Shown here: positions 4,932-30,864 of the stretch, piece by piece
Layout: each line of letters opens with the position of its first letter
Position numbering within the stretch: the first letter of the stretch is position 1
Virus genome (UHGV): UHGV-0120658
DNA: 39,443 nt
DNA from: a virus
Strand: one strand, 5' to 3'
Made by a program: the position numbers and the translations under genes
Notes under the pieces: model-generated
Seen by the model: only the letters and a program-made list of their open reading frames with translations
What the model was told of the DNA's origin: nothing
Databases searched by the model: none

Positions 4932-4938
4932 GGTGCTT

Positions 4939-5235: not shown

Positions 5236-5330
5236 GGGATGGGACGTTTTTACGGGGAGAGCAGGTTAAAGAAACGATACGAAAAAATGTATCTCCTCTT
5301 GAACGTTACCGTAAGAACAAAGAACGATAG
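5106..5330 (+). CDS. Hypothetical early protein (74 aa)
   Basis: ATG at 5106 with GGAG RBS 8 nt upstream; overlaps the previous ORF out of frame. Confidence 0.45.
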   Translation: MYAAESEVVYQFRYRGESYSVPEDDLLCCYPSLSGDGSYFFTLRDGTFLRGEQVKETIRKNVSPLERYRKNKER

Positions 5331-5352
5331 TTGCGTTTTGGGGATATGAATT

Positions 5353-5694
5353 ATGGCAATTAATGGCGCTGCGGCGACTGTTCCATTAAGCCCCGGTGAA
5401 CGCCTGAATGGACTTAATCACATTGCGGAGTTAAGGGCGAAAGTATTTGGCCTGAATATTGAGTCAGAGCTTGAGCGGTTTATTAAAGATATGCGTGATC
5501 CACGGGATATCAATAACGAACAAAATAAACGAGCACTGGCTGCCATATTCTTTATGGCAAAAATTCCAGCTGAACGTCATAGCATCAGCATTAATGAGCT
5601 GACCACTGACGAAAAGCGGGAGTTGATTAAAGCAATGAATCATTTTCGTGCAGTGGTGAGCTTATTTCCCAGACGGCTAACCATGCCGAATTAA
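5353..5694 (+). CDS. Hypothetical early protein (113 aa)
   Basis: ORF in the early operon; no recognised motif. Confidence 0.5.
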   Translation: MAINGAAATVPLSPGERLNGLNHIAELRAKVFGLNIESELERFIKDMRDPRDINNEQNKRALAAIFFMAKIPAERHSISINELTTDEKRELIKAMNHFRAVVSLFPRRLTMPN

Positions 5695-5761
5695 CCAATA
5701 AATAAAATTCATGGCGTAAACCCGCCGGGCATCCCTTTATCTAAATTCAGGAGAATTGATT

Positions 5762-5995
5762 ATGCGTAATATTGAAACCCTCACGACTAAAACCGGACCG
5801 GATGATGCAGGTCTTAATCTTTTACTGACAGAGGCCCGACTTGAAGAACGTCGGGCAAGGGCTGAGGCAATGGCTGCCCGCCTTGATAGCCTGGCGTGTC
5901 ATATCACATCCCGCCAGCTAAACCACGTCGAAGCAGCAGAACTGCTGCGTGTGACCGCTGAAGCAATCCAGAACGAAGCGCAGGAGATCCACTAA
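5762..5995 (+). CDS. Hypothetical early protein (77 aa)
   Basis: ATG at 5762 preceded by CAGGAGAA RBS; its stop overlaps the start of the TraR-like gene. Confidence 0.5.
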   Translation: MRNIETLTTKTGPDDAGLNLLLTEARLEERRARAEAMAARLDSLACHITSRQLNHVEAAELLRVTAEAIQNEAQEIH

Positions 5996-6222
5996 TGGCT
6001 GATGCAATGGATCTCGTACAGCAGCGCGTTGAAGAAGAACGCCAGCGCCATATCCGTGCTGCCCGTGCCAAAACACCGGGCGTGTCTCGCGTGCTTTGCA
6101 TTGAATGTGAAGCACCAATTCCGCCAGCACGCCGCCGTGCCATTCCTGGAGTGCAGCTTTGCATTACCTGTCAGGAAATCGCAGAGCTGAAAGGCAAACA
6201 TTACAACGGAGGTGCTGTATGA
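5995..6222 (+). CDS. TraR/DksA-family C4 zinc-finger protein
   Basis: CIECEAPIPPARRRAIPGVQLCITCQ gives a CxxC-N17-CxxC finger; position matches the small zinc-finger ORF upstream of A in P2-like phages. Confidence 0.75.
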   Translation: MADAMDLVQQRVEEERQRHIRAARAKTPGVSRVLCIECEAPIPPARRRAIPGVQLCITCQEIAELKGKHYNGGAV

Positions 6223-7076
6223 GCACCATCCTGAAATGGGCGGGAAATAAAACCGCAATTATGTCCGAACTGAAAAAATACCTACCTGCTGGCCCGCGAC
6301 TGGTTGAACCTTTCGCGGGTTCCTGTGCTGTGATGATGGAGACGGATTACCCCAGCTATCTGGTTGCGGATATTAATCCTGATTTAATCAACCTCTATAA
6401 AAAGATTGCCGCTGATTGCGAGGCGTTTATATCGCGGACCAGAACTTTGTTTGAGGAAGCAAACAGTGACCTAGCTTATTACAACATAAGGCAGGAGTTT
6501 AATTACTCAACTGAAATTACTGATTTCATGAAAGCGATATATTTCCTGTATCTCAATCGTCATGGTTACCGTGGGTTATGTCGCTATAACAAGAGCGGGC
6601 ATTTCAACATTCCCTACGGTAATTATAAAAATCCGTATTTCCCTGAAAAAGAAATTCGCGCATTTGCAGAAAAAGCCCAGCGGGCAACGTTTATCTGCGC
6701 CAGCTTTGATGAAACGCTGGCGATGTTGAAGGCGGGGGATGTGGTGTATTGCGATCCGCCGTATGACGGCACGTTTTCCGGTTATCACACTGACGGCTTC
6801 ACTGAAGATGACCAGTATCACCTGGCATCCGTTCTTGAATATCGATCATCAGAAGGTCATCCGGTCATTGTTTCTAACAGTGACACATCCCTGATCCGTT
6901 CGCTGTATCGCAATTTCACTCACCACTACATCAAGGCAAAACGCAGCATCGGCGTGTCAGCTGGCGAGAGTAAATCTGCAACAGAAATCATTGCTGTTTC
7001 CGGGTCGCGCTGCTGGATGGGATTTGATCCTTCGCGTGGCGTGGATAGTTCTGCTGTGTACGAGGTGCGTGTATGA
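6219..7076 (+). CDS. dam: DNA adenine methyltransferase (Dam-like, N6-A MTase)
   Basis: N-terminal LKWAGNK and AdoMet motif EPFAGSCAV, catalytic DPPY (VYCDPPYDG). ATGA overlap with the TraR-like gene at the start and with gene A at the end. Confidence 0.85.
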
Positions 7077-9487
7077 GTCATGACGATATGAGCAACTCTA
7101 GCGGCTTTAACGAGGCTGCCGCAGCATTTTCATGGAACGGCCCGAAAAAGGCCATTAACCCTTATCTGGATCCGGCGGAAGTTGCGCCGGAGTCTGCACT
7201 TTCAAACCTGATCACTCTGTACGCTGCCGATAACGAGCAGGAACAACTGCGCCGCGAGGCACTGAGTGAGCAGGTCTGGGAGCGTTATTTCTTTAATGAA
7301 TCCCGTGATCCTGTCCAGCGCGAAATGGAGCAGGATAAGCTCATTAGCCGGGCAAAGCTGGCGCATGAGCAGCAGCGTTTTAACCCGGACATGGTCATTC
7401 TGGCAGATGTCAGCGCCCAGCCTTCTCATATCAGCAAGCCGCTGATGCAAAGTATCGAATACTTCAGCAGCCTGGGCAGGCCAAAGGCTTATTCCCGCTA
7501 TTTGCGTGAGACGATTAAGCCATGTCTGGAGCGACTGGATTGTGTACGTGACAGTCAGCTATCTGTTTCTTTCCGTTTTATGGCAAGCCATCAAGGGCTG
7601 GAGGGGCTGCTGATCCTGCCTGAAATGAGCCAGGATCAGGTGAAACGCCTGTCCACCCTGGTAGCAGCGCATATGAGCATGTGTCTTGAGGCCGCTTGTG
7701 GTGATTTGTACGCCACCGATGACGTTAAGCCAGAAGAAATCCGCAAGACATGGGAAAAGGTGGCTGCGGAAACCCTGCGTCTGGATGTTATCCCGCCTGC
7801 GTTTGAGAAACTTCGTCGGAAAAGAAACCGCCGCAAACCTGTGCCCTATGAACTCATACCGGGTTCGCTGGCACGTATGCTTTGCGCCGACTGGTGGTAT
7901 CGAAAATTGTGGAAGATGCGTTGCGAATGGCGGGAAGAGCAGTTGCGTGCTGTCTGTCTGGTCAGCAAAAAAGCATCTCCCTATGTCAGCTATGAAGCAG
8001 TGACGCATAAACGTGAGCAGCGCCGCAAGTCGCTGGAGTTTTTCCGTTCTCATGAACTGGTGAACGAAGACGGAGACACGCTGGATATGGAAGATGTGGT
8101 AAACGCCAGCAGCAGCAACCCGGCACATCGCCGCAATGAGATGATGGCCTGCGTTAAAGGTCTGGAGCTTATCGCGGAAATGCGCGGTGACTGCGCCGTT
8201 TTCTACACCATCACCTGTCCGTCACGTTTCCATTCCACGCTCAATAACGGCAGACCAAACCCGACCTGGACAAATGCGACGGTAAGACAAAGCAGTGATT
8301 ATCTGGTCGGCATGTTTGCTGCATTTCGTAAGGCGATGCACAAAGCCGGATTGCGGTGGTATGGCGTGCGGGTGGCTGAGCCGCATCATGACGGTACTGT
8401 GCACTGGCATCTCATGTGCTTCATGCGTAAAAAAGACCGCCGCGCCATCACTGCATTACTGCGTAAGTTTGCCATCCGTGAAGACCGCGAGGAACTGGGC
8501 AATAACACGGGGCCACGCTTTAAGTCTGAGCTGATTAACCCGCGCAAAGGAACGCCGACAAGCTACATCGCGAAATACATCAGTAAGAACATTGACGGGC
8601 GTGGTCTGGCTGGCGAGATCAGCAAGGAAACGGGTAAATCCCTGCGTGATAACGCTGAATACGTTAATGCCTGGGCGTCTCTGCATCGTGTTCAGCAATT
8701 CCGCTTCTTTGGCATTCCGGGGCGTCAGGCTTACCGTGAACTGCGATTGCTGGCTGGTCAGGCGGCAAGGCAGCAGGGTGACAAAAAAGCAGGTGCGCCG
8801 GTACTGGATGATCCGCGTCTTGATGCCATTCTGGCTGCTGCTGATGCTGGCTGTTTTGCCACCTACATTATGAAGCAGGGCGGCGTGTTGGTTCCCCGCA
8901 AATATCACTTGATCAGAACCGCTTATGAAATCAACGAAGAGCCGACCGCCTATGGTGATCACGGTATTCGTATTTATGGCATCTGGTCACCCATTGCAGA
9001 GGGCAAGATCTGCACTCATGCAGTGAAGTGGAAAATGGTTCGTAAGGCCGTTGACGTTCAGGAGGCGGCAGCCGACCAGGGCGCTTGCGCCCCTTGGACT
9101 CGTGGCAATAACTGTCCCCTTGCTGAAAATTTGAACCAACAGGAGAAAGATAAATCAGCTGATGGGGACCCCAGAACGGACATTACCAGCATGGATGACA
9201 AGGGGTTGCACGATTACCTGCACAGTATGAGCAAAAAAGAGCGCCGGGAACTGGCAGCAAGGTTATGCCTGGTGAAACCGAAACGGCGTAAAGACTACAA
9301 ACAGCGAATTACAGACCATCAGCGACTGCAGCTCGTGTATGAGCTGAAGTCCAGAGGATTTGATGGCAGCGAGAAAGAGGTCGATTTACTCCTTCGCGGA
9401 GGCAGTATTCCGTCAGGAGCAGGCCTGCGTATCTTCTATCGGAACCAGCGTTTGCAGGAAGATGATCAGTGGCGGAACCTGTATTAA
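7073..9487 (+). CDS. A: Replication initiation protein A (rolling-circle endonuclease, P2 gpA-like)
   Basis: 804 aa with HxH motif VHWHLMCF and the tyrosine pair SYIAKYISK typical of P2 A-type initiators. Confidence 0.85.
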
Positions 9488-10383: not shown

Positions 10384-11463
10384 GTGGCGTTATCAGATGC
10401 GTTAATTACAGTAAATCAAGCCGAACGGGGCGGTGAAAACGCGTTGAGAGGCTTTTCATATCAAGCCTCTTGGGGGATAAATTATTTACTTGAGAAACAA
10501 AAAGAAAAGGAGAAATATTTATTTCTATTTGAATATCATGACGATATTCTTGTATTGAATTCATCTGTTTCTCCGACTAGTGCTGAGTTTATCCAAGTTA
10601 AAACAAAAAAAGATGGTAAATGGACACTCGCAGCAATAGTGAACGCAACAAAAGCTAAACCTAAATCATTTGTTGCAAAACTATATGACCATTTCTATCA
10701 ATTCGTTGGTCACGAAATTTATATGGTTCTGTTATCGAATGCTGGATTCGATTTCTTAAATGATAATAACGAAAAAGGTAGTGATCTTAATAATGAGCAT
10801 AAGGAAATTATAATTAGTAAGGTTCAAGAGCAGCTAAATACTAAAAAAGAAGTTCCTCTTGATAAAATAAAATTTAAAACATCTGATCTTAGTTTGTTAG
10901 ATCCTAACTCACATTTATACGGGAAAGTTGCAGTTTTTTTGAATTCTTACTTTGGGGATGATCATGGTATTAATTCAACAGCATTCACTAAATTATTAAT
11001 CAATAAGTGTAATGAGAAGGTTAGTGTTGCTTCTAGTGATATCAAAACTTTTGAAGATTTAGTACTAAAGAAAGGTATATCTTCAGAATTTGTAACTGAT
11101 TTATTATCTGGACTCATTGCAAGCATAAAAATAACGCCAAAATGGGAACAGGTTTGTATGTTGCTTGGTACTTTCTCAGATCCTTATGAGGGGATTAAAT
11201 TACAATCAGTTTTTACACGCATATCAATAAAAGTGCTCAATGTCAATTCAATATACTATCTTTATTTTCTGGAATTTCAATCGGCTCTAAAGAGTATAGA
11301 GCATTATCGTGAGATACCTGTTCGAGACCTCTTCTTTACACTCGAAAAAACAATTGCAGCGGGGGACGGGGATTTCTCTTTATTAAATCAAGAAGAGAAA
11401 TTTATGATTGCTATATATGCAATTATAAAGTTGACTTTTGAGGATGTTTCTTATGAAGAATAA
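10384..11463 (+). CDS. Candidate defence effector: PD-(D/E)xK nuclease of the Cap4/DUF4297 type (LmuA-like)
   Basis: AT-rich gene; N-terminal GFSYQ, then FEYHDDILVL...AEFIQVKTKK, i.e. a D...QxK restriction-endonuclease-like catalytic core (about 10540-10602). GTG start with AGGGA RBS; 11-nt overlap with the downstream ATPase gene. Confidence 0.55.
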   Translation: MALSDALITVNQAERGGENALRGFSYQASWGINYLLEKQKEKEKYLFLFEYHDDILVLNSSVSPTSAEFIQVKTKKDGKWTLAAIVNATKAKPKSFVAKLYDHFYQFVGHEIYMVLLSNAGFDFLNDNNEKGSDLNNEHKEIIISKVQEQLNTKKEVPLDKIKFKTSDLSLLDPNSHLYGKVAVFLNSYFGDDHGINSTAFTKLLINKCNEKVSVASSDIKTFEDLVLKKGISSEFVTDLLSGLIASIKITPKWEQVCMLLGTFSDPYEGIKLQSVFTRISIKVLNVNSIYYLYFLEFQSALKSIEHYREIPVRDLFFTLEKTIAAGDGDFSLLNQEEKFMIAIYAIIKLTFEDVSYEE

Positions 11464-13111
11464 CGTTAAATTTAAAAATATAAAAATACTCTCATTAAGA
11501 GACAGAAAAGCTTTTTCTTATGAGTTTTCAGAAGGGGTTAACTTCATATATGGTACAAATGATGTTGGTAAATCAAGCCTGATTAAAAGTCTTTATTACA
11601 CATTAGGTGGAGATTTAAGGCTTGATGATGCTTGGAAATCAGATGATATAGTTACACTGGTGGAAATTAATAACGGGGAAAATGATTTTATTTTTTTGCG
11701 TTATAAAAAGATTATTGGTGTCTTTGATTTGAAGAATGATGATCTAGTCGTGTATAACACGATTTCGTCATTAGCATCTCGTGTTTCAAATATATTTGGT
11801 TTTAAACTGGAATTACATAATAAATATACGGGTGCTACGACTCAGGCAAACCCTGCTTGTTTGTTTGCCCCATTCTTTATTGATCAGGATGAAGGATGGA
11901 AAGCGGTGATAAATTCTTTCGAAAACATGAGTATGTACTCAGAATGGCAAAAAAACATTCTTTACTATCACTCTGGAATTAAGCCAAAGGAATATTATAC
12001 AGTTCAAGGGAAAATCAAAGAAATTAAAGTTAAAATTTCAGAGTTAGATGGTTTTGTTAAGGTTCTAAAAAGAAGCAAAAGTAAGATTGATGAATCTTTT
12101 GGCGTGGTTTTATTTGATGTTGATTTGGATTTTTATAAATCAAAGTTGGAACGTATATTAAATGAATATTCTAATTTAAATTTAGTTCAGACAGAATATA
12201 GATTGAATCTTTTGAGGTTATATTCTAGGAAGAATTTCCTTGAGAGTGAACTCAAAGAGATAACTGCGATTATTGATAATGAATTTGAGATTTCGAATTT
12301 TCGAGATGATAATGTTGCTTATTCAGTAAATGAATATAATTATATAAACCATAGAGATGAAATGCTCAAAAACATTGCTGTTCTTGCAGATGAGAAAAGC
12401 AAGATTGAGGAAAATATTCCTAAATTGAATCAAAAGCTAGAAGAGTCAAGGGCTGCTTCAGAGGCGTTGCAGGCGCTGATTTTAGAAACTCAATCGGAAA
12501 TAACGCTTCATGATGTTATTAAATCTGCCGCATACCATGAAATTGAATCTACTTTTATTTCACAGTTAGATGAGTTATTCGTTGAGATTGGTCGAAAAGA
12601 AGGCGAGTTGACAGAATTACAAGAAGAATTAGAAGTATACAATGATAAGAAAAGAACTGTTAAAATAAATGACTGTTTCAAAGAGTATTTCGCTAAAGCT
12701 CTTAAAGAGCTTGGTGTCGAAAATACAAAGGTAGGTGGCCTTAGTAGTTATAATAATATTACTAAGGGTAAGACTGGTAGTCGAGGTCCTCGAGGTATAT
12801 TTGCATTTCACTACGCGCTGCTTAGTGTTATGAAAAGCAACTCTTCAGTTGAGAATATGCCTATAGTAATAGACTCTCCAAAGCAACAAGATTTGGATCC
12901 AGAGCATACGCATAAGCTTATAAAACTATGCTTGGATGGGTTTTCCCTTACAAATCAGATTATTATTGGAACTGTTGGTTATGAGAGTTTCATGGATGGT
13001 TTTAATAGCATCAAACTTGAAAATAAATATCATCTTTTAAATGATGAACATTATGATAATGTTTATTCTCAATTAATGCCATTGTTTGAACGGGTGATAC
13101 TTTCAAGATGA
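11453..13111 (+). CDS. Candidate defence ATPase: SMC/Rad50-like coiled-coil ABC ATPase (LmuB-like)
   Basis: Walker A GTNDVGKSS near the N-terminus (about 11552-11578), long central heptad-rich region, C-terminal Walker B-like PIVIDSP. ATG at 11453 overlaps the upstream stop (11461-11463). Confidence 0.55.
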   Translation: MKNNVKFKNIKILSLRDRKAFSYEFSEGVNFIYGTNDVGKSSLIKSLYYTLGGDLRLDDAWKSDDIVTLVEINNGENDFIFLRYKKIIGVFDLKNDDLVVYNTISSLASRVSNIFGFKLELHNKYTGATTQANPACLFAPFFIDQDEGWKAVINSFENMSMYSEWQKNILYYHSGIKPKEYYTVQGKIKEIKVKISELDGFVKVLKRSKSKIDESFGVVLFDVDLDFYKSKLERILNEYSNLNLVQTEYRLNLLRLYSRKNFLESELKEITAIIDNEFEISNFRDDNVAYSVNEYNYINHRDEMLKNIAVLADEKSKIEENIPKLNQKLEESRAASEALQALILETQSEITLHDVIKSAAYHEIESTFISQLDELFVEIGRKEGELTELQEELEVYNDKKRTVKINDCFKEYFAKALKELGVENTKVGGLSSYNNITKGKTGSRGPRGIFAFHYALLSVMKSNSSVENMPIVIDSPKQQDLDPEHTHKLIKLCLDGFSLTNQIIIGTVGYESFMDGFNSIKLENKYHLLNDEHYDNVYSQLMPLFERVILSR

Positions 13112-21522: not shown

Positions 21523-21614
21523 AGATTCATGCTTTTGCTAGCTTCTACAAGGTTTTATGCTTCTAAACACTGTATGTTTAATTTGACATATAACTATTTG
21601 TACAAGCGGTGAGT

Positions 21615-22838
21615 ATGAAAAAGCAAGATGAGTCCCCCAAAGCTGATAAATCAAATTTAGATAAAAGTGAGTCTGAACCACCAAAAGCGAACTCTATGGC
21701 AGATGCCATGGCCATAGCGGCAGAGGTTGCTACGACAGCAACGTCAGTTCAAACATCAACCTTTGCAATTATCGCGGATTTTCTACGTTCAGGTGGTATA
21801 GAAAAACTAACTTCAAATGCTATCAAAAATTTAGAAATAAAAGTAAAGGGCCATTCTCAAGCGACAAGAACTACGGTATTGAGGAACCTGAAGACCTCTT
21901 TCAAAGAGGAGAATTTAGTTCTTGTTTTAGGTGCTGGCATTTCTTTAGATTACAGCATACCAACATGGAGTGAATTATTAAAGCGGCTATTGGCAAGAGC
22001 TTTGGATGATAAAAATGAAAATCAGAAAATGGTATCGGTTTTGTTTAATGAGGTTTTCGGTCCGAACGCACTCATAGCAGCCAGATATCTAAAACTACAC
22101 TTTGATGGTATTAATACTCCCTTGGAAAAAGAAATTCAGCATGTTTTGTATGAATATTATCAGGAGGAAGAAAGCAGTACATTGAAAGCAATCAAGAAAT
22201 TGTGCATATCGGCAGGCAAGTCACCAGGTCTAGATTCCGTTATTACATATAACTATGATGATATTTTGGAACAGACATTAACTAGAGCTGATGTTTGTAT
22301 AAAGTATAAGGTGATTTCAAAGACGGGACAGCATGCAAAAAATGATGAACTGCCGATCTACCATGTGCATGGCTATCTCCCATTGCAGGGGAAAGTTGAA
22401 CTCGATGACACGCTAGTCCTTTCTGATGAAAGCTATCATAGGCAATACATGGATTTATACCATTGGAGCAATATGGTTCAGTTGAATAAATTCAAAGATG
22501 GAAATTGCCTGTTTGTTGGTCATTCCTTTACAGATCCAAACCTCAGAAGGTTGATGGATACAGCCAAAAAACTTAGAGGGAATGATTCTAAACCTCATTA
22601 TTTAATTAAGTGTAGACATTCGAAAGAAGATGTGATTGCTAATATTCAAAGAATTGTTAGTGACTCAAGAAATGGATTTGATAATAAACTGAATATTAAT
22701 GAGGATGCAATCGCGACCTCTCTTTTACAGACAGTGCATACTTTTGAAGAAATCGATGCTAATTCATTTGGCGTGAATGTTATTTGGATCGACTCTTACG
22801 ATGAGATTGCACCAATACTTAATGATCTAACACAATAA
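21615..22838 (+). CDS. Standalone SIR2-like (SIR2_2 family) protein; candidate NAD+-depleting defence effector
   Basis: AT-rich gene between S and V. Motifs in family order: LVLVLGAGISLDYSIPTWSELL (GAGIS at 21930-21944), ITYNYDDILE, IYHVHGYL, LVLSDESYHRQY, CLFVGHSFTDPNLRRL. About 100-aa charged N-terminal extension. The track ORF starts at GTG 21609. Confidence 0.65.
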   Translation: MKKQDESPKADKSNLDKSESEPPKANSMADAMAIAAEVATTATSVQTSTFAIIADFLRSGGIEKLTSNAIKNLEIKVKGHSQATRTTVLRNLKTSFKEENLVLVLGAGISLDYSIPTWSELLKRLLARALDDKNENQKMVSVLFNEVFGPNALIAARYLKLHFDGINTPLEKEIQHVLYEYYQEEESSTLKAIKKLCISAGKSPGLDSVITYNYDDILEQTLTRADVCIKYKVISKTGQHAKNDELPIYHVHGYLPLQGKVELDDTLVLSDESYHRQYMDLYHWSNMVQLNKFKDGNCLFVGHSFTDPNLRRLMDTAKKLRGNDSKPHYLIKCRHSKEDVIANIQRIVSDSRNGFDNKLNINEDAIATSLLQTVHTFEEIDANSFGVNVIWIDSYDEIAPILNDLTQ

Positions 22839-22867: not shown

Positions 22868-22915
22868 GCTTTAAATCCTATCCTAATGACGGCAGCATTT
22901 GGCAATCTAATTGCC

Positions 22916-23494
22916 ATGAACGCTCAACTAACAGAAATCATGCGCCTTATCACCAATCTGATCCGCACTGGTGTAGTCACCGAAGTGGACCGGGAAAACT
23001 GGCTTTGTCGGGTGAAAACGGGCGACCTTGAAACCAACTGGATTAACTGGCTGACACTGCGCGCGGGCAAATCGCGCACCTGGTGGAAACCGTCTGTGGG
23101 TGAGCAGGTTGTGCTGTTCAGCCTTGGCGGCAATCTGGAAACCGCGTTTGCCCTGCCTGCGGTCTACTCAAACCAGTTTCCGCCACCTTCAGATTCTGAG
23201 AACGGTAACGTGACGGAATACCCGGACGGTGGCTGGTTTGAATACGAACCCGCCACCGGGCGCTGGTATGTCAGGGGCATCAAATCAATGGTCATTGAGG
23301 CCGCTGACAACATCACCATGAAAGCCAGTGAGTTTGTACTGGAGGCTGACCGCACGCGCATTAACAGCGAAGTGGTGATCAATGGTGGCGTTACCCAGGG
23401 CGGCGGAGCGATGAGTTCTAACGGGATCGTGGTTGATGCGCATCAGCATACTGGCGTCCTGAAAGGCGGCGATACAACCGGAGGCCCGGTATGA
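22916..23494 (+). CDS. V: Baseplate spike/assembly protein (P2 gpV-like)
   Basis: MNAQLTEIMRLITNLIRTGVVTEVD aligns with the remembered P2 V N-terminus; the track ORF from 22886 is an upstream extension. Confidence 0.85.
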   Translation: MNAQLTEIMRLITNLIRTGVVTEVDRENWLCRVKTGDLETNWINWLTLRAGKSRTWWKPSVGEQVVLFSLGGNLETAFALPAVYSNQFPPPSDSENGNVTEYPDGGWFEYEPATGRWYVRGIKSMVIEAADNITMKASEFVLEADRTRINSEVVINGGVTQGGGAMSSNGIVVDAHQHTGVLKGGDTTGGPV

Positions 23495-23850
23495 CGCTTT
23501 ATAGCGGGATGAACAATACCAGCGGCAAAGTCATTACTGATATTGACCATCTGAGCCAGTCGGTACGGGACATTCTGCTGACACCGCAGGGTAGCCGTAT
23601 TGCCCGTCGTGAATATGGTTCCCTGCTGTCGGCACTGATAGACCAGCCACAAAATCCAGCATTACGCCTGCAGGTCATGTCGGCAGTGTATGTAGCGCTG
23701 AGTCGCTGGGAGCCACGGCTGACGCTGGACTCCATCACCATTAACAGCAATTTTGACGGTTCAATGGTGGTGGGGCTGACCGGGCGGCGTAATAACGGTG
23801 TGCCTGTTTCCCTTTCCGTATCAACAGGAGCAGAGAATGGCAGTGATTGA
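23491..23850 (+). CDS. W: Baseplate wedge protein (P2 gpW-like)
   Basis: 119 aa; ATGA overlap with V. Confidence 0.8.
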   Translation: MTLYSGMNNTSGKVITDIDHLSQSVRDILLTPQGSRIARREYGSLLSALIDQPQNPALRLQVMSAVYVALSRWEPRLTLDSITINSNFDGSMVVGLTGRRNNGVPVSLSVSTGAENGSD

Positions 23851-24745
23851 CCTTTCGCAGTTGCCTGCGCCGCAGATTGTGGATGTGCCGGACTTTGAGA
23901 CGCTGCTTGCCGAACGCAAGGCAGAATTTGTGGCGCTTCATCCGAAAGATGAGCAGGAAGCAGTGATGCGTACGCTGGAACTGGAATCTGAACCCGTCAC
24001 CAAATTGCTGCAGGAGAACGCTTACCGTGAGTTGCTTCTGCGCCAGCGCATTAACGAAGCCGCGCAGGCTGTGATGGTGGCTTACGCGATGGGCGGCGAT
24101 CTTGACCATCTCGCTGCTAACTACAACGTGAAACGCCTGACGGTGACACCTGCTGATGATGACGCTGTACCGCCCGTTGCGGCTGTGATGGAAAGTGATG
24201 AAGCGTTACGCCTGCGTGTGCCTGCAGCCTTTGAAGGGCTTTCTGTTGCTGGGCCAACTGCCGCTTATGAGTTTCATGCACGAAGCGCCGACGGTCGGGT
24301 GGCGGATGCCAGTGCAACCAGTCCGGCACCTGCAGAGGTGGTGCTTACGGTCCTAAGCCGTGAAGGCGACGGAACAGCAGAAAAAGACCTGCTGGATGTG
24401 GTGGAGAAAGCCCTGAACAGTGAGAACGTCCGCCCGGTGGCTGACCGTCTGACGGTTCGCAGCGCGGAAATCATCCCGTACCGCGTGGAAGCCACCATTT
24501 TTCTCTATCCGGGGCCGGAAGCAGAGCCGGTAATGGCAGCGGCAAAAGCCAGCCTGCAGAGGTACATCGCCAGTCAGACGCGGCTTGGTCGGGATATTCG
24601 CCGTAGCGCCATTTTTGCCGCGCTGCATGTTGAGGGTGTTCAGCGTGTGGAACTAGCTTCCCCGCTGGCGGATGTGGTCATGAACAAAACGCAGGCGGCA
24701 TCATGTACGCAGTGGAGCGTGACCAACGGGGGTACGGATGAATAG
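23837..24745 (+). CDS. J: Baseplate assembly protein J (P2 gpJ-like)
   Basis: ATG at 23837 gives 302 aa, the P2 J length; overlaps the W stop. Confidence 0.8.
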   Translation: MAVIDLSQLPAPQIVDVPDFETLLAERKAEFVALHPKDEQEAVMRTLELESEPVTKLLQENAYRELLLRQRINEAAQAVMVAYAMGGDLDHLAANYNVKRLTVTPADDDAVPPVAAVMESDEALRLRVPAAFEGLSVAGPTAAYEFHARSADGRVADASATSPAPAEVVLTVLSREGDGTAEKDLLDVVEKALNSENVRPVADRLTVRSAEIIPYRVEATIFLYPGPEAEPVMAAAKASLQRYIASQTRLGRDIRRSAIFAALHVEGVQRVELASPLADVVMNKTQAASCTQWSVTNGGTDE

Positions 24746-25343
24746 TCTGCTGCCACCGGGTTCAACGCCACTGGAGCGCCGACTGGCGCAAACCTGCAGC
24801 GGGATTTCTGATCTGCAGGTGCCGCTGCGTGACTTGTGGAATCCGGCAACCTGTCCGGTCAGTTTCCTGCCTTATCTCGCCTGGGCGTTCTCTGTGGATC
24901 GCTGGGACGAGGGCTGGACAGAAAGCGTCAAACGTCAGGTGGTGAAGGATGCTTTTTATATTCATCAGCATAAAGGAACCACCAGTGCCGTGCGGCGGGT
25001 GGTGGAGCCGTTCGGCTTTCTGATCCGCATTATTGAGTGGTGGCAGACCGGAGAGGCACCGGGCACGTTTCGTCTGGATATCGGCGTGCAGGACCAGGGC
25101 ATCACTGAAGATACCTATCTGGAACTTGAGCGACTGATAAGCGATGCCAAACCATGTAGCCGTCACATGATCGGCATGTCCATCAACCTGCAGACCAGCG
25201 GCCCGCACTGGGTGGGAGCCGCCAGCTATCTTGGCGAAGAAATCACGATCTATCCGTATATCAACGAAACAATTATTTCCGGCGGCACCGCGCATGAAGG
25301 CGGGGCGGTCCATGTTATTGACACAATGAGAGTGAATCCATGA
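24738..25343 (+). CDS. I: Baseplate/tail protein I (P2 gpI-like)
   Basis: 201 aa between J and H. Confidence 0.75.
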   Translation: MNSLLPPGSTPLERRLAQTCSGISDLQVPLRDLWNPATCPVSFLPYLAWAFSVDRWDEGWTESVKRQVVKDAFYIHQHKGTTSAVRRVVEPFGFLIRIIEWWQTGEAPGTFRLDIGVQDQGITEDTYLELERLISDAKPCSRHMIGMSINLQTSGPHWVGAASYLGEEITIYPYINETIISGGTAHEGGAVHVIDTMRVNP

Positions 25344-26884
25344 GCACAAAATTTTATACCCTGCTGACGGATATTGGCGCGGCGAAACTTGCCAGCGCCG
25401 CCGCGCTCGGTGTGCCGCTAAAAATTACCCATATGGCGGTGGGCGATGGCGGCGGAGTATTGCCGACGCCGGACGCAAAGCAGACTGCACTGGTAAATGA
25501 GAAACGCCGGGCTGCGCTGAATATGCTCTATATCGACCCGCAGAACAGCAGCCAGATTATTGCTGAACAGGTGATCCCTGAAAACGAGGGCGGTTGGTGG
25601 ATACGTGAAGTGGGCCTGTTTGATGAGTCAGGGGCATTGATTGCCGTGGGGAACTGCCCGGAAAGCTATAAACCGCAACTGGCTGAAGGCAGCGGGCGCA
25701 CCCAGACCGTGCGCATGGTGCTGATTACCAGCAGCAAGGAAAATATCACCCTGAAAATCGATCCTGCTGTAGTGCTGGCAACCCGCAAGTATGTGGATGA
25801 CAAGGTACTGGAGCTGAAGGTGTATGTGGATGACCTGATGGCAAAACACCTTGCCGCACAGGACCCACATTCACAGTATGCACAGAAAGAAAGTCCGACG
25901 TTTACCGGGAAACCCAAAGCGCCAACGCCAGCAGCAGGGAATAACACCACGCAGATTGCGACCACCGCGTTTGTTCAGGCGGCACTGATGGCCCTTATTA
26001 ATGGTGCGCCAGCCACACTGGATACGCTGAAAGAAATTGCCGCTGCCATTAATAATGACCCGAAATTCAGTACCACCATTAACAATGCGCTGGCACTGAA
26101 AGCGCCGTTGTCGAGTCCGGCACTCACCGGAACGCCAACAGCCCCCACGGCGGCGCAGTCGGTCAACAATACACAGATTGCCACTACGGCTTTTGTGAAA
26201 TCGGCGATTGCGGCAATGGTGGGTTCTGCACCTGCGGCACTGGATACACTGAACGAACTGGCGGCGGCGCTGGGGAATGACCCGAACTTTGCCACGACAA
26301 TGCTTAATGCACTGGCAGGTAAACAACCGCTGGACAATACGCTGACTAATTTGAGTGGAAAGGATGTAGCTGGTCTTCTCACATACCTTGGTTTGGGAGA
26401 AGGCTCAGCGTTACCCGTTGGTGTGCCTGTTCCGTGGCCTTCAGCCACACCACCAACAGGCTGGCTGAAATGCAACGGTGCACCTTTTTCTGCCGAAGAG
26501 TACCCAAAACTGGCAAAGGCTTACCCAAAGTTAAAATTACCGGATTTGCGCGGTGAGTTTATTCGCGGGTGGGATGATGGGCGAGGTGTTGATTCCGCGA
26601 GACTGCTACTTTCAAGTCAGGCGGCATCTATCCTTGAACATAACCATGAAATGCATGGATGGACAGGGAACCCACTCATGGCTAGAGATGTTTATTCATC
26701 CGGTTCATCCGTATTTGCGGTGCAGTTGAGCATTGGCGATGGCGGGTTATTGTATTCGTGGAAGGATGGGAGTGGAACAACAAATGACAGTAAACGAATG
26801 GATAGAACAAATCATGTCAGTTCCGGCGCCGGTGATGGTAGCCCGCGAAACATTGCATTTAACTACATTGTGAGGGCTGCATAA
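25340..26884 (+). CDS. H: Tail fibre protein (P2 gpH-like); C-terminal part lies in the invertible segment
   Basis: Conserved N-terminus MSTKFYTLLTDIGAAKLA; the variable C-terminal part begins downstream of the inversion site at about 26388. Confidence 0.85.
   Translation: MSTKFYTLLTDIGAAKLASAAALGVPLKITHMAVGDGGGVLPTPDAKQTALVNEKRRAALNMLYIDPQNSSQIIAEQVIPENEGGWWIREVGLFDESGALIAVGNCPESYKPQLAEGSGRTQTVRMVLITSSKENITLKIDPAVVLATRKYVDDKVLELKVYVDDLMAKHLAAQDPHSQYAQKESPTFTGKPKAPTPAAGNNTTQIATTAFVQAALMALINGAPATLDTLKEIAAAINNDPKFSTTINNALALKAPLSSPALTGTPTAPTAAQSVNNTQIATTAFVKSAIAAMVGSAPAALDTLNELAAALGNDPNFATTMLNALAGKQPLDNTLTNLSGKDVAGLLTYLGLGEGSALPVGVPVPWPSATPPTGWLKCNGAPFSAEEYPKLAKAYPKLKLPDLRGEFIRGWDDGRGVDSARLLLSSQAASILEHNHEMHGWTGNPLMARDVYSSGSSVFAVQLSIGDGGLLYSWKDGSGTTNDSKRMDRTNHVSSGAGDGSPRNIAFNYIVRAA
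26376..26401. repeat. Left inversion site (hix/gix-like 26-bp site) inside H
   Basis: TTCTCACATACC-TT-GGTTTGGGAGAA; the half-sites are an imperfect inverted repeat and resemble the remembered Gin/Hin half-site pattern TTxTCxxAAACC. Confidence 0.6.
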
Positions 26885-27487
26885 ATGGAACAGGTTATTT
26901 TGGGAAAAGACGGTTACGCTTTAAATGATGGGGAAATCATCGTACATAACTATGATGGCGAAACGCGGGAATATATTTCCACATCAACTGAATATCTTGC
27001 GGTTGGCGTCGGTATCCCGGCATGTTCTTGTTTAGATGCACCAGTTACACATAAAGCTGGTTATACAATTTGCCGTTCTGTGGATTTAAAATCATGGGAA
27101 TATGTGTCAGACCATCGCGGTGAAATCGTCTATAACACCGAAACGGGAGACGCCAAAGAAATCACAGCTCCGGGTGATTACCCTGAAAATACAACCACTA
27201 TCGCCCCATTAACGCCATACGATAAATGGGATGGTGAGAAATGGGTGACCGATACTGAGGCACAGCATCGCGCCGCAGTAGACGCGACAGAAGCACAGCG
27301 TCAGTCACTGATTGATACTGCAATGGCTTCCATTAGTCTGATTCAACTGAAATTACAGGCCGGGCGGAAACTGACGCAGGCAGAAACAACCCGGCTTAAC
27401 GCTGTGCTGGATTACATTGACGCGGTGACGGCAACAGATACCAGCACCGCGCCGGATGTCATCTGGCCTGAACTGCCGGAGGAGTAG
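26885..27487 (+). CDS. G: Tail fibre assembly protein (P2 gpG-like)
   Basis: 200 aa after H; its C-terminus resembles that of the alternative Tfa on the other strand. Confidence 0.8.
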   Translation: MEQVILGKDGYALNDGEIIVHNYDGETREYISTSTEYLAVGVGIPACSCLDAPVTHKAGYTICRSVDLKSWEYVSDHRGEIVYNTETGDAKEITAPGDYPENTTTIAPLTPYDKWDGEKWVTDTEAQHRAAVDATEAQRQSLIDTAMASISLIQLKLQAGRKLTQAETTRLNAVLDYIDAVTATDTSTAPDVIWPELPEE

Positions 27488-27899
27488 GCCATTCAATATC
27501 TGGTGCACTGGAAGTATCGACCAGCTCCAGTGCGTCCAGATAATCCAGCCACAAATTATATTGCGCCAGTTCCTCACCTTTCAGACGACCAATTGATGCT
27601 TTACCTGGCCATTGTTTACTGTTGATGTATTCGTTGGCCTGGTTAATCAATTGCTGCTTTTTAGTTTCGGCTGATGCAATTTGTTCTTCACGTGTTGGTG
27701 GAGGAACATCTGCCCAAGCTGGCATTCCGTCGCCTGCGGTAATTCTGCGCTTACCTTCGGGCGGCGTGTCATAGAAATATTCCCTGAAAATAGCTTCGTC
27801 TATATCCACGCCTTTACCTTCGGGCCATTGGCCTTTTGCAGCGTAAACAGACTGGAGGGCATAAGGGTACGCCAGATTATCAACATACAAATATTTCAT
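27459..27899 (-). CDS. Alternative tail fibre assembly protein (tfa'), inverted orientation
   Basis: 146 aa on the minus strand, convergent with and overlapping G; C-terminal SAPDIEWPTPP parallels TAPDVIWPELP in G. Confidence 0.7.
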   Translation of the reverse strand: MKYLYVDNLAYPYALQSVYAAKGQWPEGKGVDIDEAIFREYFYDTPPEGKRRITAGDGMPAWADVPPPTREEQIASAETKKQQLINQANEYINSKQWPGKASIGRLKGEELAQYNLWLDYLDALELVDTSSAPDIEWPTPPAVQAR

Positions 27900-27901
27900 A
27901 A

Positions 27902-28231
27902 TTAACGCCCTTTCGCGTAGAAGGCTCCACCTTCAAAGCCATAGTTACAATGAGCAACGAAACCTGTTTTCGTCCAGTTAGTTGCGCCCCACATATTCCC
28001 ACCACCAAAACCGCCGTCATATACAATCACTACGTCTGGCTCCTGCGTAAAAGGAATGGTGAAAGTCACATTTGTAGATACCGCCGCGGCGTTATTCGGG
28101 AAATTAATTCTTCCCCACTGTTCAATTGAACCATCAGGCAATTTTTGCCAGCCAGATCCTGATGAATAAGCTGACATATCAGGTATCTGATTTTCCCCTG
28201 TCCCTACATCCCGTTTTGCCGCCTCTCCCAA
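27902..28231 (-). other. Promoterless alternative tail fibre C-terminal cassette (H'), expressed only after inversion
   Basis: Minus-strand ORF with no ATG, starting at the right inversion site; in frame with the H constant part across the shared GLGE crossover codons. Confidence 0.65.
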
Positions 28232-28248
28232 ACCAACCTTTGAAAATG
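28223..28248. repeat. Right inversion site (inverted copy)
   Basis: CTCTCCCAAACC-AA-CCTTTGAAAATG; the core TCTCCCAAACCAA (28224-28236) is the exact reverse complement of TTGGTTTGGGAGA (26388-26400). Confidence 0.6.
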
Positions 28249-28270
28249 GTCACCTATATAGGTGACCATT
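28245..28270. other. Perfect 26-bp palindrome AATGGTCACCTATATAGGTGACCATT (terminator or protein-binding site)
   Basis: Exact reverse-complement symmetry; sits between the orf140 stop and the right inversion site. Confidence 0.5.
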
Positions 28271-28274
28271 CGGG

Positions 28275-28697
28275 TTAATGCAGCGTTGTAGTTGAGCTGG
28301 ACTCTGCCATTGCCACTGTCAATTCATCGCCTTCGGCTGAGATCTTAATGGTATTACTTCCTTCTGATTTAGCGCCTTTTGGTAGACCTAGCTGATCATA
28401 GATACACAAGAATCTTGAATCATTTATAAAGGTGATTTCTGTTACAGTCCCACCTTCAACGACCTTAGAGTCTATTGATTTTATCAAATTGATATCCTGA
28501 ACATTAATGTGCTTTATCGCATCCCAGTTAAGGCTGATGTCCACGTTATCCTTTTGCATCGTTATCACATGACCGGCCTTATGCTGGGTTGTGACTTTTC
28601 CATCAGGGCTCATCGTAATCTTTTGCCCCATGTGATAAATAATTTGAGTTCCGTCTTCGAGACACTCGATTTTTGGCTCTTTAGTAAAGTCGTTCAT
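28275..28697 (-). CDS. Hypothetical 140-aa protein at the Z/fun-equivalent position
   Basis: AT-rich ORF between the invertible segment and the invertase gene; no recognised motif. Confidence 0.5.
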   Translation of the reverse strand: MNDFTKEPKIECLEDGTQIIYHMGQKITMSPDGKVTTQHKAGHVITMQKDNVDISLNWDAIKHINVQDINLIKSIDSKVVEGGTVTEITFINDSRFLCIYDQLGLPKGAKSEGSNTIKISAEGDELTVAMAESSSTTTLH

Positions 28698-28902
28698 GAA
28701 AATCCTTCAATTATCTGTTGCTGGAAGGTGCTAATCTACACGAATCCTTGGTTATGTATGTAATGAGGCTCTAGAAATCCACTTGAATATAAATAAATTT
28801 TTATGGTGTTGGCTTGTAATGCTCGCGTAGCTCTTTGTCAAAAGTGAAACTCTGATAACCTGGTTCTACTGACGAACAGAAGGATGAGCAGGAGATCGCT
28901 TT

Positions 28903-29463
28903 ATGATTATTGGGTATGCACGAGTATCAAGTAACCATCAGGACACCGAGCTTCAGATGCAGGCGCTCAGAGCTGCTGGCTGTAAGTTAATTTTTGAGGA
29001 AAAGGCTTCTGGCCGTAAGACGAATCGACCAATCTTGAAGAAAGTGGTTGAGATGCTTGAACCCGGTGACGAACTGGTCATCTGGAAGTTAGATCGTATC
29101 GGTCGCAATGTACTGCACGCATTATTGACCTTTCAGAGCCTCGCAGAACGCAATGTTAATATTCGTTCTATTACAGATGGCGTTGACCTGAGCACTGCCA
29201 GTGGGCGCTATAACTTCCGTAATATTCTCTCTGCGGCACAATATGAGTCTGATCTGAATAGTGAACGCACTCTGGCAGGGTTAGCGGTTGCCCGCGCTAA
29301 GGGGAGGATTGGCGGACGTAAGCCTAAGTATACTGATGAGCACTGGGATGCGTTTGAACGGGAAATTAAGTCCGGCTGCTCACATCGTGATATAGCTCTC
29401 AAATATGGGGTCGGCCTGTCGACTCTCTACAAACGTTATCCGCCTCAGCAAGAGCATCACTAA
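28903..29463 (+). CDS. Serine recombinase, DNA invertase (Hin/Gin/Pin/Cin family)
   Basis: N-terminal catalytic domain MIIGYARVSSNHQDTELQMQAL with the active-site serine in RVSS; C-terminal HTH. Confidence 0.85.
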   Translation: MIIGYARVSSNHQDTELQMQALRAAGCKLIFEEKASGRKTNRPILKKVVEMLEPGDELVIWKLDRIGRNVLHALLTFQSLAERNVNIRSITDGVDLSTASGRYNFRNILSAAQYESDLNSERTLAGLAVARAKGRIGGRKPKYTDEHWDAFEREIKSGCSHRDIALKYGVGLSTLYKRYPPQQEHH

Positions 29464-29599
29464 ACACTCTTTGCGTTCATTTTTGCACTGTGCAGAATGT
29501 GTCTTTTTGGCACCTTCTGGCAGTGCAAAATTTATCGCGTTTTGGTGCAAAAAAAATCGCCGCGCTACAATCTGCGGGGATTTTTTTTGCCCCTTCCAT

Positions 29600-29617
29600 T
29601 GTGCCATTCTCCACACA
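29600..29617. promoter_or_regulatory. Candidate late-activator site TGT-N12-ACA upstream of FI
   Basis: TGTgccattctccacACA centred about 84 bp upstream of the FI start codon. Confidence 0.4.
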
Positions 29618-29691
29618 TAGCCCGGTGCGTGCGCAGTGCGCATATCAACCAGAACATAGGCAGACACCCTGTAAACCGGAGAGACTGCCTT

Positions 29692-30864
29692 ATGGCTCAG
29701 GACTACCACCACGGCGTGCGCGTTGTTGAAATCAACGAGGGCACCCGATCCATTACCACGGTGAGCACCGCCATTGTGGGCATGGTATGCACCGGCGATG
29801 ATGCTGATGCGTCCATGTTTCCACTCAATAAGCCGGTTCTGCTGACCGATGTGTTGACCGCCAGCGGTAAAGCGGGCGAGTCCGGCACGCTGGCCCGTTC
29901 GCTGGATGCGATTGCAGACCAGGCTAAACCCGTGACCGTCGTTGTACGTGTGGCGCAGGGCGAAACCGAAGCGGAAACCACCTCCAACATTATCGGCGGC
30001 GTGACCGCTGACGGTAAAAAGACGGGCATGAAAGCGCTGCTTTCGGCGCAGTCGCAGCTCGGCGTCAAGCCGCGCATTCTCGGCGTGCCGGGACACGACA
30101 CGCAGGCGGTTGCCACTGAGCTGCTGAGCGTGGCGCAGAGCCTGCGCGGGTTTGCTTATCTGTCCGCCTATGGCTGCAAAACGGTGGAAGAAGCGATTGC
30201 CTACCGTGACAATTTCAGCCAGCGCGAGGGGATGCTGATCTGGCCTGACTTCATCAACTTTGACACCGTGCTGAATGCAGATGCGACGGCTTACGCCTCC
30301 GCTCGTGCGCTCGGCCTGCGTGCCAAAATTGACGAGCAGACCGGCTGGCACAAAACCCTGTCCAACGTGGGCGTGAATGGTGTCACCGGCATTTCCGCTG
30401 ATGTGTTCTGGGATCTGCAGGACCCGGCAACCGATGCGGGACTGTTGAACCAGAACGACGTCACCACGCTTATCCGCAAAGACGGCTTCCGCTTCTGGGG
30501 TTCCCGCTGCCTCAGTGACGATCCGCTGTTTGCCTTTGAGAACTACACCCGCACGGCGCAGGTGCTGGCTGACACCATCGCAGAAGCGCACATGTGGGCG
30601 GTGGATGGCGTGCTTAACCCATCGCTGGCCCGTGACATTATCGAAGGTATCCGCGCCAAGCTGCGCAGCCTGAAAGCGCAGGGTTACATCATCGGCGCAG
30701 ACTGCTGGCTGGATGAGTCGGTGAACGATAAAGACTCCCTGAAAGCCGGGAAGCTCACTATCGACTACGACTACACGCCGGTGCCGCCGCTTGAAAACCT
30801 GATGCTGCGCCAGCGCATCACCGATCAGTACCTGCTGGATTTCTCCAGCCAGGTCAGCGCGTAA
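29692..30864 (+). CDS. FI: Tail sheath protein (P2 gpFI-like)
   Basis: ATG at 29692 with GGAGAG RBS gives 390 aa, close to P2 FI; the track ORF from 29497 is an upstream extension. Confidence 0.85.

Follow-up and report, generated by a model that had tools for sequence, protein, structure and literature searches.

The window analysed here, a stretch of 39,443 nucleotides of viral DNA (UHGV-0120658), carries late genes in the order V-W-J-I-H-G, an accessory slot and then FI-FII-E-T-U-D, as drawn from the ORF map and Pfam, with the accessory genes lying between G and FI. Pfam matches elsewhere in the prophage include GPA, GPD and tail genes, and the annotation of related loci shows this order as well. 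The prophage also carries defence cargo, namely Lamassu and a SIR2-domain protein. In the P2 reference, the G-FI slot is occupied by fun(Z), on the minus strand, and classic P2 has no switch of the kind described below, as the initial annotation had stated. Here, the interval from the end of the V operon to FI is filled instead by an orphan gene, ORF140, and a serine DNA invertase.

The tail-fibre gene H (25340-26884, plus strand; Pfam Phage_tail_fib and Collar) encodes 514 amino acids in its present state and is made of two parts. The constant N-terminal part (25340-26387; PF12571 Phage_tail_fib, E=2.8e-64) comprises 349 codons up to the crossover and keeps 95-96% identity among relatives, irrespective of the cassette that comes after it. 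The variable C-terminus that is now in the expressed position (cassette A, 26388-26884, plus strand) shows a Collar domain (PF07484) at residues 361-408 and is followed by its chaperone gene, G/tfa (26885-27487, plus strand; Caudo_TAP, E=8.6e-32); cassette A shares about 91% DNA identity with stf/tfa of HK97. Facing it on the minus strand lies cassette B, formed by the silent C-terminus H' (27902-28236; gp53-like_C, E=1.3e-08) and the chaperone gene tfa' (27459-27899; Caudo_TAP, E=2.2e-31; PHROG 188, E=6e-52), which is convergent with G and overlaps it by 29 bp. H' has neither a start codon of its own nor a ribosome-binding site ahead of it. The arrangement proposed initially, with the H C-terminus and G in one direction and the H' C-terminus and tfa' in the other, is thus recovered, each cassette having its own Caudo_TAP chaperone. 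The two tips belong to unrelated folds or families (Collar in A, gp53-like_C in B), and a tblastn comparison of the cassettes with P1 S/U or with Mu gave no similarity at E=1e-3. The same annotation had placed an in-frame crossover at shared GLGE codons and named an out-of-frame H fusion as the outcome that would speak against a switch; when the segment is inverted in silico, H' is joined to H in frame, giving a protein of 460 amino acids, as compared with 514, in which TYLGLGE is fused to AAKRD. Cassette B is found joined to H in AP027754 and CP015088.

The boundaries of the segment are defined by a 13-bp core, TTGGTTTGGGAGA, at 26388-26400, whose exact reverse complement was located at 28224-28236, as originally reported. 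Each copy lies within a 26-bp site made of two imperfect 12-bp half-sites, inverted relative to each other, on either side of a central dinucleotide. The left site (26376-26401, plus strand) reads TTCTCACATACC, TT, GGTTTGGGAGAA, with the crossover dinucleotide at 26388-26389, and the right site (28223-28248, minus strand) reads CATTTTCAAAGG, TT, GGTTTGGGAGAG, with the crossover at 28235-28236. The inner halves of the two sites are identical and the central TT is common to both. The sites had been described as Gin/Hin-like with a common central dinucleotide; the shared dinucleotide holds, but the closest relatives of the window sites are the cix sites of P1 rather than hix or gix, the inner half GGTTTGGGAGAA agreeing with its P1 cixL counterpart, GGTTTAAGAGAA, in 10 of 12 bases. 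The right outer half-site, CATTTTCAAAGG, matches the canonical half weakly, and it is typical of the invertase clade described below, falling inside the natural range of the clade's proximal half-sites (for instance ATATTTGAAAGG and GTTTTAAAAAGG).

Taken by itself, the 13-bp repeat was rejected as a significant feature, as exact inverted repeats of this length within 3 kb arise readily in shuffled sequence. We counted 22 k-mer pairs of this kind in the window, which amount to about 10 distinct repeats, as compared with 5.9 on average in dinucleotide shuffles; a search for the P1 half-site that allowed 3 or fewer mismatches also performed no better than chance. What gives the repeat significance is where it lies, how well it matches cix and the fact that it is conserved. 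The same two sites are present at the same codons in every relative examined, and an A/G difference at position 12 of the inner half-site moves with the cassette among relatives, as expected if exchange occurs at the central TT. A third site, as in the shufflon of one EPEC prophage, was not found when the core was searched at up to 2 mismatches, the only matches being the two sites and the left site's own outer half.

Between the right site and the invertase sits a 572-bp block (28242-28813), which is an insertion relative to relatives lacking ORF140: in blastn comparisons with two such loci (L111 and L023), homology covers 28175-28241 and resumes over 28814-29569. The insertion starts within the outer half of the right site and replaced the outer 7 bp of that half-site. 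It carries ORF140 (28275-28697, minus strand), an orphan cargo gene in the slot of fun(Z) in P2; searches of Pfam, PHROGs, PADLOC and NCBIfam returned nothing for it, and similarity was detected neither to fun(Z) nor to the defence families searched. In a set of 5.8 billion proteins it falls into a single cluster at 90% identity, and a set of 1.84 billion contains five representatives; its distant homologues number only four, in contexts that say little about function, one adjoining a gp25/TssE-like gene and one lying among DUF genes, and its single-sequence AlphaFold model, with a pLDDT of 43, was too poor to use. Transcription of ORF140 would be directed into the silent cassette. A perfect 26-bp palindrome, AATGGTCACCTATATAGGTGACCATT (28245-28270), which is kept in all ORF140-type loci, separates the ORF140 stop codon from the right site and is possibly the terminator hairpin of this gene; the terminator scan did not call it.

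The invertase gene (28903-29463, plus strand) starts 655 bp past the right site, in agreement with the Hin/Gin-family enzyme noted initially at a distance of 0.65 kb, and encodes 186 amino acids with Pfam Resolvase (residues 2-135) and HTH_7 (138-177) domains. Among solved structures, the best match is Gin (3uj3, E=2.3e-54 over residues 1-185), with gamma-delta resolvase at 4.5e-21, and the protein falls in PHROG 125, 'DNA invertase' (E=4e-69). The catalytic residues Y5/R7/S9, D64-R65...R68 and E121-R122, lying in the motifs YARVSS (with S9), DR..R and ERT, align with those of Gin, as does the GGRKPK arm. The structure and PHROG matches place the predicted enzyme clearly on the invertase rather than the resolvase side of the family. 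Pairwise identities within the group of Gin, Cin, Pin and Hin typically lie around 60-70%. The identity of the window invertase is 48.6% to Gin, 51.7% to Cin and 49-50% to the common E. coli P2-type invertase (WP_000905033 type, Cin/Pin-like). Its helix-E region reads GRYNFRNILSAAQYESDLNSERT, whereas Cin has GRFFFHVMGALAEMERELIVERT; the motif common to Gin, Cin and the E. coli P2-type invertase is therefore replaced in the window, in the region where Fis-independent mutations of Gin and Hin map.

The enzyme belongs to a clade, widespread in Enterobacterales prophages and represented by 164 retrieved loci at 60% identity or more, which we read as a probable sister clade to the Gin/Cin type. The alternative helix-E motif is invariant in 161 of these loci. 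A site of the type AAACC-AA-CCTTT (equivalently AAAGG-TT-GGTTT), which is the invertase-proximal site in the clade, is found upstream of the gene in 146 of the 159 loci with enough upstream sequence, with a median distance to the start codon of 66 bp, as compared with a chance expectation of about 0.03 matches per locus.

The control of this enzyme was approached through the stretch positionally homologous, by alignment, to the annotated P1 cin enhancer (gene nucleotides 19-90), that is, a candidate enhancer at 28921-28992 on the plus strand. A Fis scan with a crude consensus recovers in cin and gin the sites at nt 23 and nt 71, 48 bp apart and within the annotated P1 enhancer. With the same crude consensus, these positions score 5/7 and 3/7 in the window, against 6/7 and 7/7 in cin/gin, the window's best candidates being at nt 20 and nt 76, with a spacing of 56 bp, and only the first position (nt 16/20) is conserved across the clade. 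Synonymous-site variation in 85 unique genes shows a weak dip at codons 1-15. Altogether, alignment with cin/gin, synonymous-site conservation and Fis-consensus scans yielded no convincing site pair for a canonical Fis enhancer in the invertase gene. Promoter and terminator scans of 26300-29750 gave no more hits than in shuffles and no clear invertase promoter.

Comparison with related prophages demonstrates that the segment occurs both ways round, with breakpoints exactly at the 26-bp sites. The predicted inverted junction is contiguous in 11 complete E. coli genomes (86-96% identity), the window's orientation is found in at least 11 others, and homology to the inverted-state relatives breaks at window positions 26388 and 28236. 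In the clearest pair, AP027754 and CP110996, the flanks are collinear (96.6% and 99.1%) and the central 1,864 bp are inverted at 98.3%; WP_033544663 is encoded in opposite directions in the two genomes. These prophages use the same G-FI slot, and their H constant part and A/B segment are 96% and 95-96% identical to those of the window, respectively; in them, however, an invertase of the WP_000905033 type, Cin/Pin-like, abuts a right site with the outer half TTTTC(A/T)TAAACG, where the window has ORF140 and an invertase of the other clade. Within the window's own invertase clade, a stretch of 1,074 bp is common to L023 and L111 (96.8% identity) and lies on opposite strands in the two loci.

Among the loci that also contain ORF140, the A-type cassette lies on the left in the window and L102 and on the right in L002 and L185, with boundaries at 26388. 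The right flanks of these loci are 99.6-99.9% identical, whereas the shared cassettes reach only 85-91%, so the opposite orientations could reflect import of whole segments instead of flipping in place. The cassette positions would thus be compatible with flipping of the ORF140-bearing lineage, but they are not decisive. Two further loci of this type, L183 and L184, have the invertase and a degraded right site with no left partner site, which indicates that the module can persist without a working switch. E. coli strains in which the ORF140-invertase module occurs include E41, MB51 and ET734.

A number of known systems share this architecture. In the P1 C segment, an invertase likewise lies beside two opposed fibre C-termini, each with a chaperone, and the crossover falls inside the fibre gene at a TT core. 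The P1 segment, however, spans 4.2 kb as compared with 1.85 kb here, its S/U cassettes are unrelated to those of the window (tblastn, E=1e-3), its enhancer geometry is not conserved in the window, and Cin is only 51.7% identical to the window invertase, which differs in helix E and is parted from its site by an inserted gene. The Mu G segment presents the same order, with the constant fibre part, left site, cassette, opposed cassette, right site and plus-strand invertase, and a site-to-invertase spacing of 67 bp, against about 66 bp in the relatives without ORF140; it differs in its gix core (GA/TC instead of TT), in Gin itself (48.6% identity) and in its host element, which is Mu-like rather than P2-like. 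Segments of the same kind as that of the window, in the same G-FI slot, are those of Fels-2 (fin) and of the EPEC E2348/69 prophages. Invertible tail-fibre segments have been described in EPEC P2-like prophages (PMC4272514), and tail-fibre inversion by fin in the P2-like prophage Fels-2 (PMC7953296), inversion having been demonstrated in these elements experimentally or by strain comparison (PMC4272514, PMC7953296). A survey of the Z/fun hotspot also reported invertases, receptor-binding-protein swaps and defence-like cargo (bioRxiv 10.1101/2024.10.15.618418). The rarity implied in the initial annotation is contradicted by this literature and by the fact that about 3,300 of 5,426 complete E. 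coli genomes match parts of the region. The device is common in P2-like prophages; what is unusual here is only the recombinase subtype and the inserted orphan gene.

Judged from the DNA, the locus is probably an invertible tail-fibre segment of the Mu-G/P1-C type in a complete P2-like E. coli prophage. In such a model, dimers of the invertase would bind both inverted 26-bp sites (26376-26401 and 28223-28248) and cut each of them at the central TT, and strand exchange would then flip the 1.85-kb segment between them; an enhancer and Fis would presumably take part. The late V-W-J-I-H operon would consequently continue past the constant region of H into one cassette or the other, giving the collar-domain tip with chaperone G in state A, as in the window, or the gp53-like tip with tfa' in state B, and a population of lysogens would release particles with two receptor specificities. 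By analogy, host range would change on inversion, and we infer that the window copy still flips. The features that we count against a working switch are the departure from the Fis geometry of cin/gin, the only mild dip in synonymous-site variation, the partial replacement of the right outer half-site, the divergence of the cassettes between ORF140-type loci with near-identical right flanks, and the retention of the module in L183 and L184 without a left site.

Alternatively, the switch could be locked or decaying, its parts being present in a lineage that no longer inverts, either because the ORF140 insertion altered the outer half of the right site and moved the invertase 0.65 kb away, or because a functional enhancer is missing. 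The start of the insertion within the outer half-site, the reduced scores at the canonical Fis positions and the persistence of the ORF140-invertase module beside a dead site in L183 and L184 all point in this direction. Nevertheless, the invertase reading frame is uninterrupted, its copies in E. coli, Citrobacter and metagenomes are 97-100% identical, the inner halves and the TT core do not differ between the two sites, and CATTTTCAAAGG lies within the half-site spread of its clade. Moreover, sites with one degenerate half, hixR for example, still function in known systems, and recombinational enhancers work at a distance, both of them textbook properties. We consider a locked switch unlikely.

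The 13-bp repeat might also be nothing but a conserved coding junction, the LGLGE linker serving homologous cassette exchange between phages. HK97 stf indeed has the same junction (GCACAAACC, TT, GGTTTGGGAGAA) with no invertase, homology to many phages starts exactly at this point, and chance alone produces 13-bp inverted repeats often enough. Such a junction would not account for copies that are inverted and flank two opposed cassettes beside an invertase, for relatives that differ by a clean inversion between collinear, near-identical flanks, or for the fact that 146 of 159 loci of the invertase clade have this type of site at a constant spacing of about 66 bp, and this explanation is accordingly very improbable as a substitute for inversion, the two roles not being mutually exclusive. 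We give still less credence to the proposal that inversion chiefly serves the lysogen, with a chimeric fibre or chaperone made in one orientation blocking the adsorption of other phages. This has a precedent in a cryptic prophage, such blocking being reported for PinQ and e14 StfE2 (PMC12529663), and it would suit a prophage rich in defence cargo in which ORF140 points towards the silent cassette. The prophage examined here, however, looks complete, H belongs to a late operon that, judging from P2 biology, would be silent in lysogens, and H' is preceded by neither a start codon nor a ribosome-binding site.

The invertible-segment reading leaves room for two further proposals on the unusual components. 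The wide spread of the invertase clade, together with its alternative helix-E motif, its own form of site and the lack of a conserved Fis pair spaced by 48 bp, suggests that these enzymes may be controlled differently. It is conceivable, at a rather low level of confidence, that they represent an uncharacterised sister clade of Gin/Cin/Hin/Pin working with no enhancer or with another cofactor and, separately, that ORF140 is a new lysogenic-conversion or anti-phage gene.

The recombination site is also a mosaic joint, at which the right-hand modules (the invertase, with or without cargo) and the cassettes are swapped between phage lineages. The switch adds little scientifically beyond those of Mu, P1, e14, Fels-2 and the EPEC prophages. 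From a practical point of view, two receptor-binding tips should be assumed for the prophage, as well as for phages or tailocins obtained from it, and assemblies of such strains may show either orientation. A populous invertase clade, about 50% identical to Gin/Cin, with its own flavour of site and no obvious canonical enhancer, offers a cheap test of how general the Fis/enhancer requirement is.

The complete P2-like prophage in the window (integrase, CI-type repressor, gpA, portal, terminase, V-W-J-I-H-G, FI-FII to D, and an ogr-like gene) lies in E. coli beside ybjL-ybjM-grxA, in a flank with 99.9% identity to E. coli chromosomes. Its tail-fibre region likely contains a structurally intact inversion switch of the Mu/P1 type. 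The H gene (25340-26884, + strand, 514 aa) begins with a Phage_tail_fib N-terminus and carries a Collar domain (residues 361-408) within the segment; together with the chaperone gene G/tfa (27487 being its last position, from 26885, + strand), its C-terminus forms cassette A. On the minus strand, tfa' (27459-27899) and a gp53-like H' C-terminus without a start codon of its own (27902-28236) form cassette B. Domain searches agree with the two opposed cassettes proposed in the initial annotation, assigning a Caudo_TAP chaperone to each. Inversion of 26388-28236 in silico generates an in-frame H fusion of 460 aa (...TYLGLGE/AAKRDVG...) with tfa' directly after it, as expected from the proposed crossover at the GLGE codons.

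The 13-bp core TTGGTTTGGGAGA at 26388-26400 and its reverse complement at 28224-28236, separated by 1,823 nt, are exact copies, as had been noticed. By itself such a repeat is unremarkable, the window containing 22 pairs of exact inverted 13-mers no more than 3 kb apart (about 10 distinct repeats) against a mean of 5.9 in dinucleotide shuffles; its significance comes from the context. The left site (26376-26401) reads TTCTCACATACC-TT-GGTTTGGGAGAA and the right site, on the minus strand (28248-28223), CATTTTCAAAGG-TT-GGTTTGGGAGAG, so that the central dinucleotide is indeed shared, and 11 of the 12 inner half-site positions agree. Although 26-bp sites of the general type described are present, their suggested likeness to Gin/Hin sites needs amending: the inner half GGTTTGGGAGAA equals that of P1 cixL (GGTTTAAGAGAA) at 10 of 12 positions, with the TT core in common, whereas the core of Mu gix is GA/TC, and the sites therefore resemble cix more closely than they do hix or gix.

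The nearby recombinase (28903-29463, + strand, 186 aa), followed by FI, is a Gin-family serine invertase, as originally claimed. Residues 1-185 align with Gin structures (3uj3, E=2.3e-54, versus 4.5e-21 for gamma-delta resolvase), the top PHROG family is 'DNA invertase', and the protein keeps the catalytic serine S9 (YARVSS), the DR..R and ERT motifs, and a GGRKPK arm followed by a helix-turn-helix. It shares only 48.6% identity with Gin, 51.7% with Cin, and about 50% with the usual invertase of E. coli P2-like prophages. Scans of genome, viral, and metagenome collections retrieved 164 full-length relatives at ≥60% identity, including proteins from Citrobacter murliniae (99%), Morganella, Erwinia tracheiphila, Kluyvera, and Trabulsiella; in 161 of them the sequence GRYNFRNILSAAQYESDLNSERT is invariant, at a position taken by GRFFFHVMGALAEMERELI(I/V)ERT in Gin, Cin, and the invertase common in E. 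coli. From these sequences, we read the group as a probable sister clade of the classical invertases.

Among the 159 clade relatives with sufficient upstream sequence, 146 have an AAAGG-TT-GGTTT site in the 800 bp that precede the invertase start codon, with about 0.03 matches per locus expected by chance, so that this type of site goes with this clade. The right outer half CATTTTCAAAGG lies inside the clade's spread (e.g., ATATTTGAAAGG and GTTTTAAAAAGG), and the distal sites have outer halves of the TTCTCNCANACC type, resembling the left site of the window. The proximal site lies at a median of 66 bp from the start codon, comparable to the gixR-gin spacing of 67 bp in Mu; in seven loci bearing ORF140, an orphan gene between right site and invertase, this interval is about 650 bp. 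Dozens of predicted prophage contigs from IMG/VR (L022-L101), about 40-45 kb long, contain a clade invertase of about 72% identity whose end is no more than about 10 bp from that of the contig; this invertase hence tends to mark the edge of the predicted prophage.

The cin enhancer is annotated in P1 at nt 19-90 of the gene. With the degenerate Fis consensus GNNYRNNWNNYRNNC, both cin and gin match at nt 23 and nt 71, exactly 48 bp apart; at these positions the window gene scores 5/7 and 3/7, its top candidates being nt 20 (7/7) and nt 76 (6/7), spaced by 56 bp. In 66 unique clade members, the only conserved candidate is the one at nt 16/20, and synonymous-site variation dips over codons 1-15 only.

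ORF140 (28275-28697, minus strand, 140 aa) is separated from the invertase by a 205-bp spacer and occupies the place of fun(Z) in P2; the P2 reference has fun(Z) and no invertase in this interval, in line with the statement that classic P2 has no such switch. The palindrome, the gene, and its upstream region (28242-28813, 572 bp) stand in place of 13 bp in clade members without ORF140, the insertion starting within the right outer half-site, at its sixth base. Searches of Pfam, PHROGs, PADLOC, and NCBIfam assign ORF140 to no family; it falls into a single cluster of 24 members when 5.8 billion proteins are grouped at 90% identity, and 1.84 billion representatives include four distant homologues. 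One of these, at 38% identity, is encoded directly downstream of a gp25/TssE-like baseplate gene, possibly a type VI secretion context. The AlphaFold model (pLDDT 43) is unusable. The perfect 26-bp palindrome AATGGTCACCTATATAGGTGACCATT (28245-28270), between the ORF140 stop codon and the right site, whose outer half it overlaps, is conserved in all ORF140-type loci and followed by ATTTTC on the minus strand; it could be a terminator hairpin of ORF140 or a protein-binding site.

Two related prophages, L183 and L184 (GCA_025888915.1 and GCA_031785095.1; locus coordinates 4235-8630), carry the ORF140-invertase module with a degraded right site (CATTTTCAAAGG-TT-GGTTTACGACAA) and no left partner site; their invertible cassettes are replaced by a different H gene, of 581 aa, and by an acyltransferase (Acyl_transf_3) that may modify O antigen. 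Other cargo of the window prophage comprises a Lamassu anti-phage system between replication gene A and the portal gene (10384-13111, + strand; LmuA with a Cap4 nuclease domain, PADLOC E=4e-143, and LmuB, E=9e-254) and, among the tail genes upstream of V, a 409-aa SIR2-domain protein (21609-22838, + strand; Pfam SIR2_2 E=1e-19, PADLOC ThsA-like and SIR2-LmuA-like about 1e-20), probably a further defence gene. Adjoining the integrase on the minus strand is an ORF of 314 aa that matches no Pfam or PADLOC family (2188-3132); beside it, on the same strand (3144-4079), is an unusually long repressor-like protein (311 aa), in which the Phage_CI_repr match is split in two stretches.

Both orientations are found in relatives. 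The predicted inverted junction (constant H, cassette B, tfa') is contiguous in 11 complete E. coli genomes (best identity 95-96%), and the window arrangement in at least 11 others; segment-only matches begin or end at query positions 486-489 and 2337-2349 (window 26385-26388 and 28236-28248). In AP027754 and CP110996, the left (96.6%) and right (99.1%) flanks are collinear and the central 1,864 bp are inverted (98.3%), with overlaps coinciding with the sites; chaperone WP_033544663 and sheath WP_000046120 are present in both. The polymorphic twelfth inner half-site base (A or G) travels with the cassette, as predicted for exchange at the central TT. These relatives encode a Cin-like invertase. 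The window is collinear with CP110996 at 95% over 22900-28248, unrelated until 29691, and 86% identical thereafter, across the genes for sheath and tube.

Evidence of inversion is weaker for the clade to which the window invertase belongs. Two clade loci (L023 and L111), whose flanks are identical and whose invertases agree at 97.8%, share one cassette (1,074 bp, 96.8%) that is on the left in one locus and on the right in the other. Among ORF140-type loci, the window and L102 have an A-type cassette on the left, whereas L002 and L185 have it on the right; the boundaries are at 26388. In the latter comparison, however, identity is 85-91% for the cassettes and 99.6-99.9% for the flanks, so that whole segments may have been imported instead of flipping in place. 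The main rival to a working switch is one that has recently become locked, which we regard as unlikely; if the element is an intact switch, this particular copy probably still flips.

Systems of this kind are already known. Tail-fibre inversion has been measured in P2-like prophages of EPEC E2348/69, where one locus has two states and another is a shufflon with three sites (PMC4272514), and inferred for Salmonella Fels-2, with its fin gene, by comparing LT2 and LT7 (PMC7953296). A survey of the Z/fun hotspot in P2-like phages describes invertases, inverted neighbours, receptor-binding-protein swaps, and defence-like cargo (bioRxiv 10.1101/2024.10.15.618418). PinQ-driven inversion of the e14 segment is reported to block T2 adsorption (PMC12529663), and by analogy the window segment might serve the lysogen, though this is unlikely. 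What sets this element apart is its divergent invertase clade and the orphan gene between site and invertase. The stf gene of HK97 (L186, NC_002167, 1500-1530), a phage without an invertase, has a complete cix-like site (GCACAAACC-TT-GGTTTGGGAGAA) at which its homology to cassette A starts; the inversion site is thus also a general exchange boundary of tail-fibre modules.
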